Both the position numbers and the translations under genes were made by a program. Source: a virus (Duplodnaviria; Heunggongvirae; Uroviricota; Caudoviricetes). From it: DNA of 47,797 nt. The stretch lies in the IMG/VR virus record IMGVR_UViG_2571042438_000008, one strand, 5' to 3'. A model generated the notes under the pieces. The model was not told the DNA's origin, made no database searches, and saw only the letters and a program-made list of their open reading frames with translations. The first letter of the stretch is position 1. Each line of letters starts with the position of its first letter. Below, piece by piece: positions 320 through 5,754 of this stretch.

Positions 320-3166
320 GTGAGTAAATTATTATTTACGATGACTGACGCCGGGCGTAAGGCGCTGGTTAATGCCAACAAGACTGGAACAAATAAAGTT
401 GAGATCGTTTCTGTTGGTTTAGGTAGTAGATATTATGCCACATCAACCACACAAACAAAAATAACAGATGAAATAAAGCGACTTACCACAATAGGAGGCA
501 AAGTCGTTTCTCCTGATACCATTCATGTAACTGCGAAGGATGATAGTAAAGATGAGTATGCTGTCCATACAATAGGTTTGTATACAAATAAAGGAACATT
601 GTTTGCTGTATACTCGCAAGAACAAGTAATAATAAATAAAGCATCTTCTACAATTGCTTTAATATCAAGTGATATAGCAATTAAAAATCTTGATACTAAA
701 AACATTACATTTGGTGATGTTGAGTTTATTAACCCTCCCGCAACCGAAACTGTTGTTGGAGTAGCAAGATTTGCTAATGAACAAGAAATTGATGCAGGTA
801 CAGATGATTCCCTGGCTGTTTCAGCAAAGCGGCTTAAGCAAGCTATTGTAAAACATGAGCAATCACGTAATCATCCTGATGCAACTTTAACATCAAAAGG
901 CATTGTTCAACTCAGTAATGCCACCAATAGCACGTCTGAAAAGCTCGCAGCGACGCCTAAGGCTGTTAAGGCTGCATATGACCTGGCTGACGGAAAATAT
1001 ACCGCCCAGAATGCCACCACGGCACAAAAAGGGATAGTTCAGCTCAGTAGTGCCACTAACAGTACGTCTGAAACGCAGGCGGCAACGCCAAAAGCGGTCA
1101 AGGCAGCAAATGACAACGCAAATTCACGTCTGGCGAAAAATCAGAACGGTGCAGATATCCAGGATAAATCAGCTTTTCTGGACAATGTTGGCGTTACCAG
1201 CCTGACGTTTATGAAAAACAATGGCGAAATGCCGCTTGATGCTGATCTGAATACGTTTGGTCCTGTTAAGGCTTATTCAGGTATCTGGTCTAAAGCAACA
1301 TCCACCAACGCAACACTGGAGAAAAATTTCCCGGAAGATAATGCTGTCGGTGTGCTTGAGGTTTTTGCTGCCGGCAATTTTGCAGGTACGCAACGCTTTA
1401 CCACGAGAGACGGCAATGTATACATGCGTAAACTCGCCAATAAGTGGAATGGCACTGATGGTCCGTGGGGCGTATGGCGTCACACTCAATCTGCTACCCG
1501 CCCTTTGAGTACGACTATAGACCTGAATACGCTTGGAGCCGCCGAGCATCTTGGTTTATGGCGTAACAGTAGCTCAGCTATAGCTTCATTTGCCCGCAAT
1601 TATCCGGAAGAAGGGAGCTATGCTCAGGGGATTCTCGAAGTTCTTGAAGGCGGCGGATATTCGCGAACACAGCGTTACACTACCAGTCGTGGAAATATGT
1701 ATGTACGCTGCCTTACCGCAAGCTGGGATGCATCAAATCCGCAGTGGGGACAGTGGCTAAGAATCGGCAGCCAGACTGCAAGCGGTTTCTTTGAAGGCGA
1801 TCTGAATAATCTGACCGATCCTGGTATTTACAGTGTTACAGGAAAGGCAACAAACGGTCCGATGCTGGACGCTGCTGGGGCGACATTGCTTGGGATACTG
1901 GAAGTAATCAGGCGTTTTGATGGTGTATCTGTCTGGCAGCGTTACACAACCACAGGAAAATCAGAAACCACACAGGGGCGCACTTTTGAGCGCGTCTACG
2001 CCGGGAGCACATGGACCGAATGGCGAGAAGTGTATAACTCCTTTTCGTTGCCCCTGAATCTGGGTATTGGCGGCGCAGTGGCAAAACTCACCAGCCTGGA
2101 CTGGCAGACCTACGACTTTGTGCCGGGCAGTCTGATAACCGTTCGGCTTGATAACATGACCAACATTCCCGACGGTATGGACTGGGGCGTCATTGATGGT
2201 AACCTGATAAACATCGCTGTTGGCCCAAGTGATGATACCGGTACGGGGCGCTCAATGAAGGTATGGCGCAGCACTGTAAGTAAAGCCAACTACCGCTTTT
2301 TTATGGTGCGCATTTCAGGAAATCCGGGAAGCCGCACGATCACAGCAAGACGAGTACCAATCATTGACGAAGCCCAGACATGGGGCGCGGAACAGACATT
2401 CAGCGGTGGTCTTTCAGGCGAACTATCCGGCAATGCTGCTACAGCAACAAAGCTGAAAACGGCAAGGACAATTAACGGCGTAAAATTTGACGGCTCGGCA
2501 AATATTGAAGCGTTTCCGCCAGGTGTTCCGCTGCCGTGGCCATCAGATACGCCACCTGCAGGTTATGCAATCATGCAGGGGCAGACGTTTGATAAGGCAG
2601 CATATCCGAAACTGGCTATTGCCTATCCTTCTGGTGTTATTCCAGATATGCGCGGCTGGACAATCAAGGGCAAACCCGCCAGTGGTCGGGCCGTATTGTC
2701 TCAGGAACAGGATGGCATTAAATCGCACACCCACAGTGCCAGCGCATCCAGTACGGATTTGGGTACGAAAACCACATCGTCGTTTGATTACGGTACTAAA
2801 TCAACGAATAACACAGGTGCACATACCCACAATGTATCTGGTACTGCAAATAGTGCTGGCGCACATACTCATACCGTTCCATTAAGGAGACCAAACAGTG
2901 GCGGTATGAATTTCGACTGGCTGGATGGTTCATCAAGTGGCACGGTGGTGGGGAATGGAACTGTGCCTTCTTCTGGCGCACATACCCACTCAGTATCAGG
3001 TACCGCTACAAGTGCTGGGGCACATGCACACACTGTTGGTATTGGCGCTCATACGCACTCTGTTAAGATTGGTTCACATGGACACACCATCACCGTTAAC
3101 GCTGCTGGTAACGCGGAAAACACCGTTAAAAACATCGCATTTAATTATATTGTGAGGCTTGCATAA
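320..3166 (+). CDS. Tail fiber protein (P2 gpH / Mu S-like), 948 aa
   Basis: Position after the gpJ/gpI baseplate genes; two copies of the phage tail fibre repeat ([25 protein letters not shown]); three beta-rich internal repeats; C-terminal His-rich GAHTH.V repeats. Confidence 0.85.
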
Positions 3167-3783
3167 TGGCATTCAGAATGAGTGAACAATCACGTACCGT
3201 AAAAATTTATAACCTGCTGGCCGGAACTAATGAGTTTATTGGTGAAGGTGACGCATATATTCCACCTCATACAGGGCTGCCAGCTAATTCTACAGATATC
3301 GCCCCACCGGAAATTCCTGCTGGCTTTGTGGCAGTTTTTAACAGTGAAAATGAATCGTGGAATATTGTTGAAGACCATCGTGGTAAAACGGTCTATGACG
3401 TGGCGTCGGGGGACGCATTGTTTATTTCTGAACTCGGACCGCTACCAGAGAATGTCACCTGGTTGTCGCCAGCAGGGGAGTATCAGAAGTGGGACGGCGT
3501 ATCCTGGGTGAATGATGAGGAAGCAGAAAAACTGTTTCGGATACGGGAAGCGGAAGAGAAAAAGGCAAGGTTGATCCAGGAAGCAACAGATAACATCGCA
3601 ATTCTGCAGGATGCAGTTAATCTTGAAATAGCAACAAACGAGGAAAATTCACAACTGGATTCCTGGAGAAAATACAGAGTATTAGTGAGTAGAATTGACA
3701 CCAGTACAGCTCCGGATATCGTATGGCCAGAGCTGATGAATCAGGGTTATGTTCGGGAGGACGAGCAGATAACTTCAGACTGA
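3166..3783 (+). CDS. Tail fiber assembly protein (gpG/Tfa-like)
   Basis: Start overlaps the fiber stop (TAATG); size and position typical of Tfa chaperones. Confidence 0.65.
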
Positions 3784-4310
3784 AATTTAGTGATGAATGT
3801 TGAATCATCAGGAATATCATGCAATACCAATGCATGAGCACCTATTGTGACATTGTTTCCTATACGCACTTTGCCACCAAGAATGGTGGCATTACAACCA
3901 ATGGTCACATTATGCCCTATAACAATATCCATATCATTAAATTCCCCGCGAAGTCCAATAGTTACTCCGGGCTTAATTGAACAATTTTCACCGATTGTTA
4001 CTTTGTGACCGATAACAACACTGTTGAGATAAGAAATATCAAAGCCTTTCCCTATATTTACAGTTAAAGGGACTGTTACATTATATTTATCAAGAATGAA
4101 ACGTTCTATTTTTCCCGCAATCTTCCGACAGTATCCGCCTTTATCAAAAAGGTATTTGGCTATGCGCCACCAAAATAAATAACGAACCCTTCTATGTTTT
4201 ATTGCGCGAACAATTGCCTTTCGCCAGGAGAAAGGACGCTCGCTACCGATTACTTCATAGTGAATACAGTCTTTAAGTTCATTAATATTCATATCTTTAT
4301 TATTCAGCAT
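3747..4310 (-). CDS. Hexapeptide-repeat (left-handed beta-helix) acetyltransferase, moron-like
   Basis: Repeated [LIV]-G-x-x-x-x hexapeptides ([47 protein letters not shown]); opposite strand to the tail operon. Confidence 0.6.
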
Positions 4311-4725
4311 AAGATAATCATGTGACCAATTATTGTAATAATTTTAATGGTATGTTTCTACTGGCTATCCAGCGTGTCTGATATCCAGTAACAAATCGTC
4401 AACACGGGTGCAATCAAATGGTGAGTGTTAAGACTGACCACTTATTACCAGGTATGAGTGGCCAGCATTAAATCAGAACAGCCCTTTAACTGAACTGGCC
4501 GCGCTGTTAAGGGATGATGTCACCTTATCTTTGAAGCCGGACAGCATATTGCTGAACGATGAGTTTACCGCAGGTTTCTGGCTGGGAATCATTGACTGGA
4601 GTTAGGCCAGTAGTATGATGCTCGCAAAACGAGATCCAATTTAGATCCTTTTACTGGTGGATTATCGTTCGATCAGTGAGAGACTTCGTGCATGACCGAA
4701 AGTGTTGTGGTAGAGTTCTCTTAAA

Positions 4726-4740
4726 ACCACGTAACGTGGT
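4726..4740. promoter_or_regulatory. Repressor-type operator dyad ACCACGTAACGTGGT in the repA upstream region
   Basis: Perfect 5-N5-5 inverted repeat identical in arms to the three dyads in the cI/cro-like intergenic region; followed directly by TATGAT (4741-4746). Confidence 0.5.
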
Positions 4741-4780
4741 TATGATTGTGGGTGTCTGGTTGGAAAGTGACCAGATATGG

Positions 4781-4861
4781 AAACAAAAAGCCCGCAGATA
4801 AATCTGCGGGCTTCTTGCGACATCCACGGAAAACCAACAACTAACCATGGGCGCCTCGACA
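4781..4861 (-). ncRNA. Candidate CopA-like antisense RNA of the repA leader (~80 nt)
   Basis: Minus-strand perfect -10 TATAAT (plus coords 4868-4873) with weak -35; minus-strand intrinsic terminator (10-bp GC-rich stem 4789-4812 followed by a U-run); lies inside a 16-bp inverted repeat of the leader (4823-4838 / 4875-4890). Confidence 0.45.
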
Positions 4862-4905
4862 ACTCCCATTATACGTTGGTTTTCCGTGGACGCAAGAGCG
4901 AACAT

Positions 4906-5754
4906 ATGGATAGACCAATGCCGTCTCTACGTTCAGCTTACGTTTGTAATTTGTCGCCGGAGTTCCAGCCTCCAAAGCACCATACGCACAAGCTGCCGCT
5001 GGTGTTATCTGATGCTTTACAGCGCATTAATGGGCGTGATCTTACGTGTGAGGTTGCGTTCTACGTTAATCAACCGTCAGAGCGGAAGCGCCGGATAAAC
5101 GAGCATCGTCGTCGGGCGATTAATGCTGTGATCGCTGCGATTTTGCACCATGTAAACATCATTTCTAAGCGGGTTCTGGCCAGTGCTGAGGCGTTGGCTG
5201 ATTTTTGCGGCCTGTCTACCGTATCCGAAGCTGGGAACAAGTCTATAACGCGCTGTACAAGGGCGTTGTCGCAACTGAAAGCGTTAGGTTTTATTGATTA
5301 TGAACGTCGCTGGGATCGGGTGAATAAACAGTATTGGCCAGCGAAAATAGAGATTCGTGATCAACTGCTGGAAACCGTTGGTATTACTGAACAAGCATGG
5401 AGACGTGCGGTTAGCCAGAAACTTAATTACTTCAATGCGAAGAATAGCGAACGGCTTAAAAAAGCGATAACGGAGGCTGATTATAAGCGTATTGTTATTC
5501 AGGAGCAGATGGAGAATGTATGGCATCAGAGGAAGACGGCCAGAGAGATAAAGGCAAAACAGAAAGCAGCGGAGAGAGCTGCGCGTCTTGTTCGGGAAAA
5601 GGGAGAGGCCGAACTTCGTCATCAAATCACTAGAGAGGTTAGCCAGGAATTTGCTGATGGCATGTATCCTGGAGCTGACCTTGCATATTTACGATCCCTC
5701 GTTGAGCAGCGTTATAACAGGTTAAGAAAGACCTGGAAATCACTCCAACATTAA
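4906..5754 (+). CDS. repA: Replication initiator RepA, IncFII (RepFIIA) family
   Basis: Translation aligns with R100/R1 RepA1 as recalled (RRRAINAVIAAIL..., SITRCTRALSQLKALGFIDYE vs SITRATRALTFLSELGLITYQ); start chosen at the in-frame ATG 4906 by length; the ORF is open upstream to 4777. Confidence 0.85.
   Translation: MDRPMPSLRSAYVCNLSPEFQPPKHHTHKLPLVLSDALQRINGRDLTCEVAFYVNQPSERKRRINEHRRRAINAVIAAILHHVNIISKRVLASAEALADFCGLSTVSEAGNKSITRCTRALSQLKALGFIDYERRWDRVNKQYWPAKIEIRDQLLETVGITEQAWRRAVSQKLNYFNAKNSERLKKAITEADYKRIVIQEQMENVWHQRKTAREIKAKQKAAERAARLVREKGEAELRHQITREVSQEFADGMYPGADLAYLRSLVEQRYNRLRKTWKSLQH

Follow-up and report, generated by a model that had tools for sequence, protein, structure and literature searches.

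What does an acetyltransferase-like gene do at the end of a phage tail operon? The question is raised by the virus record IMGVR_UViG_2571042438_000008, a ~47 kb Escherichia coli phage-plasmid whose whole 47,797-nucleotide stretch is referred to below as the window. On its minus strand, convergent to the tail-fibre assembly gene tfa, it carries a gene for a left-handed beta-helix (LbH) protein at positions 3747..4292. The original prediction described this gene as an acetyltransferase moron of the kind that commonly modifies O-antigen or another surface polysaccharide of the lysogen. We find that it belongs to a known phage family that is as yet uncharacterised, that it is exchanged between phages together with a tail-fibre tip and tfa, and that its product has lost the catalytic dyad of its relatives. 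Our reading, which we put forward tentatively, is that it is a lysogen-expressed accessory gene that alters an envelope glycan and hence the interaction of the cell with phages or tailocins bearing related fibres.

The longest open reading frame of the LbH gene covers 3747..4310 on the minus strand and encodes 187 amino acids (aa). The true start is probably the ATG at 4292 (Met7), since the homologues begin there, PGAP uses Met7 in three other genomes, and the upstream ATG is destroyed in an 88% identical variant from a prophage remnant (L012); the protein would then have 181 aa, and residue numbers below follow the 187-aa frame. This is a real gene rather than a chance reading frame, because it matches the PHROGs family phrog_2154 over its full length, is present in 316 of 5426 complete E. 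coli genomes (~6%) and shows pairwise dN/dS ratios of 0.02–0.12. These ratios were obtained among five E. coli alleles with 73–97% nucleotide identity from four genomic contexts. They demonstrate strong purifying selection and, together with the intact copies in the four contexts, rule out a decaying pseudogene. Among the complete genomes, the gene occupies 291 chromosomal and 59 plasmid places, and its carriers belong to diverse O-serotypes (O6, O121, O80, O145 and O78). It is also present on many phage-plasmids of P1-like and other types, some of which are clinical or carry resistance. One intact copy with 73% nucleotide identity, found on the chromosome of E. coli EC974 (L013 5956-6507), stands by itself between rcdA and ybjL, away from any phage genes, and approximately 70 E. 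coli records fall in its identity band. This orphan copy is apparently domesticated, and its persistence in intact form at a phage-free site implies that the LbH protein must benefit the cell without any virion.

The encoded protein matches the Pfam Hexapep model (1.1e-12, 47.5 bits against a cutoff of 27), and writing the sequence in rows of 18 residues reveals its tandem imperfect hexapeptide repeats ([LIV]-G-x4). A monomer model built by AlphaFold2 from a 99-sequence alignment (mean pLDDT 91) has four helices at the N terminus and, after them, an LbH domain with a single inserted loop. The reading frame, the domain match and the model thus uphold the prediction of an acetyltransferase-family gene on the opposite strand. 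Foldseek searches against solved structures returned serine acetyltransferases as the best hits (TM ~0.7, probability 1.00), and those against viral structures (BFVD) gave nothing useful. No transmembrane segment was found in the protein (maximum 19-residue hydropathy of 1.06), which is soluble and a putative homotrimer. In PHROGs, residues 5-186 align with positions 2-184 of the 185-position phrog_2154 profile (6.9e-79), so that the protein is a full-length member of this family; PHROGs lists it as "unknown function", and membership therefore gives no mechanism.

More can be learned from cellular relatives. The top NCBIfam models are EpsC, CysE and WcaB, all with scores far under the respective cutoffs (81/150, 71/211 and 62/196 bits). 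Relatives of ~185 aa with 30–35% identity (P0087, P0025) are encoded between glycosyltransferase, Wzy and flippase genes in polysaccharide clusters, which places the ancestry of the LbH protein within the WcaB-like group of polysaccharide O-acetyltransferases. The protein shares with WcaB, the E. coli colanic-acid O-acetyltransferase, and with other short (~145–190 aa) LbH enzymes of Wzx/Wzy clusters the arrangement of a few N-terminal helices, about five LbH coils and one loop insertion; WcaB itself is of similar size, soluble and alignable end to end. Nevertheless, the two proteins are only 25% identical, the WcaB-type models (TIGR04016 and PRK10191) score 60–62 bits against cutoffs of 195–196, WcaB His74 and its Glu/Asp partner are replaced by Tyr and Thr, and the gene is part of the host-range cassette of a phage, with tfa on one side and the plasmid replicon on the other, rather than of a polysaccharide cluster. 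The closest solved structures by sequence (E 3e-12) as well as by fold are those of CysE, in which the junction of the helical and LbH domains and the active-site loop are in the same places. Nearly all public records name the LbH protein "serine acetyltransferase", and in the literature its homologues appear either under this name, with their presence unexplained, or as a "fitness" gene (PMC9603915, PMC6456863). Unlike CysE, for which the roles of the serine-binding and catalytic residues are described in PMC9547175, the LbH protein lacks Asp92, Asp143, Asp157, His158, Arg192 and His193, and the serine-binding positions Asp92, Asp157, Arg192 and His193 are occupied by Pro26, Ser93, Met127 and Asp128. 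Judged by these residues, the public label is wrong.

The most conspicuous change concerns the catalytic dyad. The general base of CysE is His158 and its partner is Asp143 (PMC9547175), and according to a 2011 structural paper the catalytic His is common to all crystallised LbH transferases. In the LbH protein these two columns hold Tyr94 (codon TAT, 4029..4031, minus strand) and Thr79 (codon ACA, 4074..4076, minus strand), as was seen in the alignments with structures from the Protein Data Bank (PDB), in a 25-sequence alignment with the CysE and WcaB references of E. coli MG1655, and in the 99-sequence alignment. Among the 99 aligned homologues, the catalytic column contains His in 87, Tyr in eight, Asn in three and Ser in one, and both CysE and WcaB have His. 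The Tyr clade comprises the query and its E. coli variants, P0007-P0010, P0013, P0014 and a protein of Hafnia phage yong2, with divergence down to 53% identity. Tyr is invariant in all eight clade members and is retained in all five E. coli alleles, as opposed to His in all thirteen sister phage proteins; the partner column holds Thr, Lys or Val in the Tyr clade versus Asp or Glu in the sister clade. The orphan copy on the EC974 chromosome is likewise of the Tyr type. Two further active-site changes in the Tyr clade are Pro in place of Gln178 and Met-Asp in place of the Arg192-His193 loop, and the most conserved part of the clade is the C-terminal coils. The nearby His102 could in principle replace the missing base, but this residue is Leu or Arg in yong2, P0014 and P0013.

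Among 231 close and representative homologues, Tyr94 is limited to the query clade and one outlier. An exhaustive search of 1.84 billion cluster representatives returned only four clusters at E<=1e-30, indicating that the Tyr clade is tiny and recent, and a scan of species-representative genomes found only His-type relatives with at most 45% identity, so that the diversity of the clade was not extended. A wider family combining Tyr with a relocated His was considered on the basis of three Flavobacteriia loci and rejected, as the pattern arose from a one-residue alignment shift and the ungapped alignment places Gly at the catalytic column and a His elsewhere, at a position typical of the family. 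Two Flavobacteriia loci (L135 3986-4417 and L153 3923-4363) encode LbH proteins of 143–146 aa in polysaccharide clusters with the motif FGYGGIGVVLHK. When these proteins are aligned without gaps, the canonical column has no His, and a His occurs seven residues later; in the wider alignment of the family the consensus residue there is His as well, and this may be a second conserved active-site His in the family. In three metagenomic proteins of 193 aa (P0083, P0099 and P0106), the catalytic-His column holds Asn and the Asp143 column Tyr; as aligned, this group is a second, independent departure from the canonical dyad. As for the Tyr-type protein, its active-site residues suggest either an enzyme with non-canonical chemistry or a binding-only pseudoenzyme.

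The genomic setting of the LbH gene is that of a moron. The region 3000-5000 of the window is 100% identical to many non-mobilizable plasmids of 47–50 kb, e.g., pSCU-204-5, whose public annotation gives the order of the tail operon as sheath/tube, tape measure, baseplate V/W/J/I, tail fibre and tail-fibre assembly protein. The LbH gene comes next and is followed by an IncFII-like repA, a RelE/ParE toxin-antitoxin pair, ParA, and lysis and regulatory genes; its predicted place at the end of the tail operon is thereby confirmed. The tail-fibre gene occupies 320..3166 on the plus strand, with the distal tip encoded by its 3' part (2534..3166) from the Collar domain (aa 735-782) onward. The adjacent tfa (3166..3783, plus strand) is recognized by Caudo_TAP (1.1e-39) and is annotated as a tail-fibre assembly gene in the identical plasmid. 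The stop codons of the LbH gene and tfa lie at 3747-3749 and 3781-3783, so that the 3' overlap, predicted as about 37 bp, is exactly 37 bp (3747-3783). On the other side, the noncoding spacer had been given as ~340 bp up to the replicon, and we measure 466 bp to the annotated repA start (4777), or ~595 bp if RepA starts at 4906. The G+C content of the LbH gene is 0.34–0.39 and that of the fibre gene ~0.50, in keeping with a moron of foreign origin. A consensus scan identified a putative sigma-70-like promoter at 4332..4360 on the minus strand (TAGAAA-17 nt-TACAAT), which is kept in other phage backbones; the sequence farther upstream diverges. In the copies from a P1-like plasmid (L011) and the L012 remnant, the -10 element of this site is TATAAT. 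No terminator was found between the convergent tfa and LbH genes, and we infer that transcription of either gene must enter the other in antisense. Together with the low G+C content, the promoter-like site agrees with the description of the gene as a convergent moron, and its link to the fibre genes is stronger than had been supposed.

This link becomes evident from comparison with other backbones. A chromosomal P2-like prophage (L010) shares the window region 2515-4563 with 95.7% identity, the ~100 kb P1-like plasmid L011 shares 2534-4380 with 93.8% identity, and the remnant L012 retains 2968-4361 with 85.8% identity, its 88% LbH variant adjoining tfa and a fibre fragment. The homology borders against L010 and L011 are sharp. 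By these alignments, the exchanged unit of 1.85–2.05 kb is a mobile host-range cassette (2534..4380 in the window) that consists of the fibre tip from the Collar domain (aa 735) on, tfa, the LbH gene and its promoter. The 37-bp overlap is absent from L012, where a 10-bp gap separates tfa and the LbH gene.

The association with fibre genes extends to distant homologues. Genes for LbH proteins convergent to tfa were found in Hafnia phage yong2 (53% identity), Citrobacter phiNP (39%) and a P1-like phage (36%). The last one, vB_EcoM-Ro157c2YLVW (L005 3926-4498), encodes a His-type homologue at this convergent site, following a fibre tip and a tfa with 85–87% nucleotide identity to those of the window. 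It replaces part of the invertible S/U tail-fibre segment of P1, and the His-type arrangement also occurs in JL22 and many P1-like plasmids; P1-like phage-plasmids commonly carry LbH genes of this family. The homologue of a Salmonella prophage remnant directly follows the fibre genes. In the Streptococcus thermophilus 987-group phages, which we take to be virulent, a homologue with ~30% identity is flanked by a large structural gene and the holin gene, all in the same direction; no integrase was found in the examined stretch of these records. We further scored the neighbours of 80 IMG/VR loci, 41 of Tyr type (at least 89% identity) and 39 of His type (34–52%). A convergent tfa lies immediately downstream in all but one of the Tyr-type loci (40/41). 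Among the 37 His-type loci with enough downstream sequence, 16 have a convergent tfa within 100 bp, six a convergent tail fibre and three another tail gene, so that a convergent tfa or fibre gene is directly downstream in 22 of 37; the remaining ones adjoin integrase, repressor or unknown genes. In addition, homology of the window to the widespread tfaR/tfaQ genes ends inside tfa, at approximately 3563-3672, and the last 40–70 tfa codons, including the 37-bp overlap, are therefore specific to LbH-carrying cassettes.

Prophage-borne surface modification has precedents of two kinds. The classical seroconverting O-acetylases, such as Oac of Shigella phage Sf6 and GtrC/OafA, are Acyl_transf_3 proteins integral to the membrane and work at or across it. 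Since the LbH protein has neither a transmembrane segment nor an Acyl_transf_3 match, a membrane O-acetylase was rejected, and these enzymes offer a possible functional analogy only. The best functional precedent for surface modification is NeuO of the E. coli K1 prophage CUS-3, a soluble LbH polysialic-acid O-acetyltransferase responsible for lysogenic conversion of the capsule (PMC3046976). NeuO belongs to the MAT/GAT/OatWY-type LbH subfamily, pairs its catalytic His with a Trp and undergoes phase variation via a heptanucleotide repeat (PMC3046976), whereas our protein is serine-acetyltransferase-like and has Tyr at the catalytic position. Tandem repeats were not found at the LbH locus (3600-4800), which excludes NeuO-like phase variation, and NeuO was not among the matches listed (40 of 51) for the phage-database homologues at E<=1e-5. 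More generally, glycan acetylation by temperate phages has been stated to change adsorption and serotype (PMC12373910), and prophage acetyltransferase-like proteins have been associated with Klebsiella capsule types.

The mechanism that we propose starts from this ancestry. The LbH gene encodes a soluble protein derived from short WcaB-like or serine-acetyltransferase-like O-acetyltransferases, which decorate lipid-linked units of surface polysaccharides at the cytoplasmic face of the inner membrane. The cassette, in which the gene has its own putative sigma-70-type promoter, is exchanged as a whole by recombination among temperate myoviruses with unrelated backbones. While the element persists as a plasmid-prophage, the gene would be transcribed from this promoter, antisense to the silent late operon, and in lytic growth late transcription through tfa would oppose its expression. 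The substrate may be a widely conserved envelope glycan intermediate, such as units of the lipopolysaccharide (LPS) core, the enterobacterial common antigen (ECA) or colanic-acid type, rather than a single O-antigen. The altered cell surface would in turn alter adsorption of phages or tailocins with related fibre tips. With Thr and Tyr in place of Asp and His, the chemistry is probably altered and could involve a different base, a more reactive acceptor (an amine) or a much slower turnover.

We favour an effect on a surface glycan because of the polysaccharide-acetyltransferase ancestry, the own promoter, the convergent orientation, the deep linkage to fibre genes and the persistence of the gene without a phage. 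Several observations weigh against it. The canonical His/Asp dyad is replaced by Tyr94 and Thr79, and acetyl transfer by the LbH protein cannot be assumed. The many O-serotypes of the carriers make one particular O-antigen an unlikely target. Related fibre tip and tfa modules (82–90% nucleotide identity to stfR/tfaR/tfaQ) are present in 3925 of the 5426 genomes, mostly without an LbH gene, so that the coupling of the fibre and the LbH gene is not obligatory. The inference is limited, too, by Ro157c2YLVW, whose similar tip and tfa accompany a His-type gene with no more than 36% identity. Lambda-type Stf tips related to the tip encoded in the window bind the protein OmpC, which is not directly modifiable by a sugar acetyltransferase. 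The end of a late operon is a generic insertion site for morons, and the linkage could be partly due to hitch-hiking. Finally, we found in the literature neither a functional study of the phrog_2154 family nor experimental data on any of its members, and hence nothing in favour of the statement that such prophage acetyltransferases commonly modify O-antigen; the family has no assigned function in PHROGs and is labelled serine acetyltransferase in publications. Modification of a surface polysaccharide is, in its general form, the best-supported reading of the gene, and its two specific parts fare worse, the O-antigen owing to the serotypes and the acetyl transfer owing to the replaced dyad.

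A non-catalytic role is a serious rival to this reading, if a rather improbable one on the present evidence. The Tyr-type protein would perform no acyl transfer and would be kept to bind, sequestering a lipid-linked glycan or acetyl-CoA or blocking a host enzyme or a component of an incoming phage, and it could still yield a surface or exclusion phenotype. The concerted change of several active-site positions in a single clade (His158 to Tyr, Asp143 to Thr/Lys/Val, Gln178 to Pro, Arg192-His193 to Met-Asp), in a fold and a gene that are still under strong purifying selection, agrees with such a role, as does a weak match to Pfam LbH_EIF2B. Non-catalytic LbH proteins are known, including dynactin p25/p27, the LbH domain of eIF2B epsilon/gamma and inactive gamma-carbonic-anhydrase-like subunits. 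However, Tyr94 is strictly invariant in a clade whose members are down to 53% identical, and conservation is highest in the C-terminal coils, whose counterparts in serine acetyltransferases line the CoA tunnel; this looks more like a retained ligand site than a scaffold. Moreover, His-type and Tyr-type proteins fill the same genomic niche, sometimes beside similar fibre tips, suggesting the same job. We regard it as unlikely that the gene is cargo unrelated to receptors, i.e., an acyltransferase with a small molecule, an antibiotic or a metabolite as its substrate, or a factor directed inside the cell against phages or defence systems, which would adjoin tfa only since insertions are tolerated at the end of the late operon and recombination of fibre modules is frequent. 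Its absence from most related fibre tip and tfa modules, the homologues next to integrase or repressor genes, the orphan chromosomal copy and weak NCBIfam matches to Vat, CatB, maltose and galactoside acetyltransferases speak for cargo of this kind. On the other hand, the matches to xenobiotic acetyltransferases cover only ~40 residues of generic LbH (22–33 bits versus cutoffs of 300–475), by which an antibiotic acetyltransferase of the Vat/CatB type was rejected, and the defence-system models of PADLOC-DB 2.0 gave no family at E<=0.01. Adjacency to tfa or fibre genes recurs at 34–53% identity in different genera and beside unrelated fibres, which hitch-hiking alone explains poorly.

The same adjacency, including the 37-bp overlap, could point to a factor that modifies or helps to assemble the tail fibre or Tfa during lytic growth, and so could the co-directional placement between structural and holin genes in the S. 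thermophilus phages and the position after the fibre genes in the Salmonella remnant. We nevertheless consider such a virion factor very unlikely, given that in enterobacterial phages the gene is convergent to the late operon and has its own promoter-like site, that intact selected copies persist in a remnant that retains no complete fibre gene and at a chromosomal site free of phage genes, and that most related fibres lack the gene. A genuine serine O-acetyltransferase, that is, a CysE-like auxiliary metabolic gene, would agree with the names in public records and with CysE enzymes being the best PDB matches in sequence and fold. Its residues, size and family scores led us to reject this identity, which we hold to be extremely improbable: every serine-binding residue and the catalytic His are missing, the protein has 181 aa versus 273 aa and lacks most of the N-terminal domain and the C-terminal tail, the scores for TIGR01172 cysE (71.5 bits, cutoff 210.65) and PRK11132 (44.7, cutoff 397) are far under the cutoffs, and the relatives are located in polysaccharide clusters.

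Beyond the effect on a surface glycan that we favour, a bolder and rather doubtful proposal is that the Tyr94 subclade was neofunctionalised after a single His-to-Tyr switch and loss of the partner Asp. The protein would have gained non-canonical or new-acceptor acyl transfer, or glycan/CoA binding, specifically suited to the fibre tip with which it is transferred: as a means of self-protection or exclusion, it would keep phages or tailocins with the same tip from adsorbing to the carrier cell. Fibre tip, Tfa and LbH gene would then make up an "attack plus shield" cassette that passes between phage-plasmid backbones of P1-like, P2-like and other kinds. Two of the features found here are absent from the papers that we found, namely the co-mobility of fibre tip, Tfa and LbH gene across P1-like, P2-like and the present phage-plasmid backbones, and the clade-specific replacement of His/Asp by Tyr/Thr under strong purifying selection.

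Several side observations concern the vicinity of the cassette. Within tfa, positions 3509-3707 (plus strand) match the putative small RNA IS009 (RF02111 in Rfam) over the full model length with 81.5 bits versus a gathering score of 117; this match most likely reflects homology of tfa to the cryptic-prophage tfa that defines IS009 and not a separate RNA gene. In one otherwise identical plasmid (CP125027.1), an IS3-family transposase is inserted inside the 3000-5000 region and splits the match into two pieces. A plus-strand promoter-like site with a good match (TTGACT-16-TATGAT) is located at 4592-4619. Inside the annotated repA frame (4777-5754), the minus strand of 4784-4817 forms a perfect 8-bp GC-rich hairpin, GCCCGCAG-N6-CTGCGGGC, followed by a T-run and has a partial, CsrC-terminator-like match in Rfam; from its sequence, it looks like the terminator of an antisense copy-control RNA. 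Pfam and NCBIfam matches to RepA begin only at aa 52-57, suggesting that the true start is probably the ATG at 4906 and that the public annotation starts too early.

With respect to the biology of these phage-plasmids, approximately 6% of complete E. coli genomes carry a gene that is mislabelled as serine acetyltransferase. If the LbH gene alters the cell surface, it would affect phage susceptibility, with consequences for phage therapy and for the spread of phage-plasmids, as well as serology and the co-evolution of receptor-binding modules with matching protection. The replacement of His by Tyr under strong purifying selection offers a tractable test of whether LbH transfer can proceed without the canonical base or whether an enzyme has changed into a binding protein.

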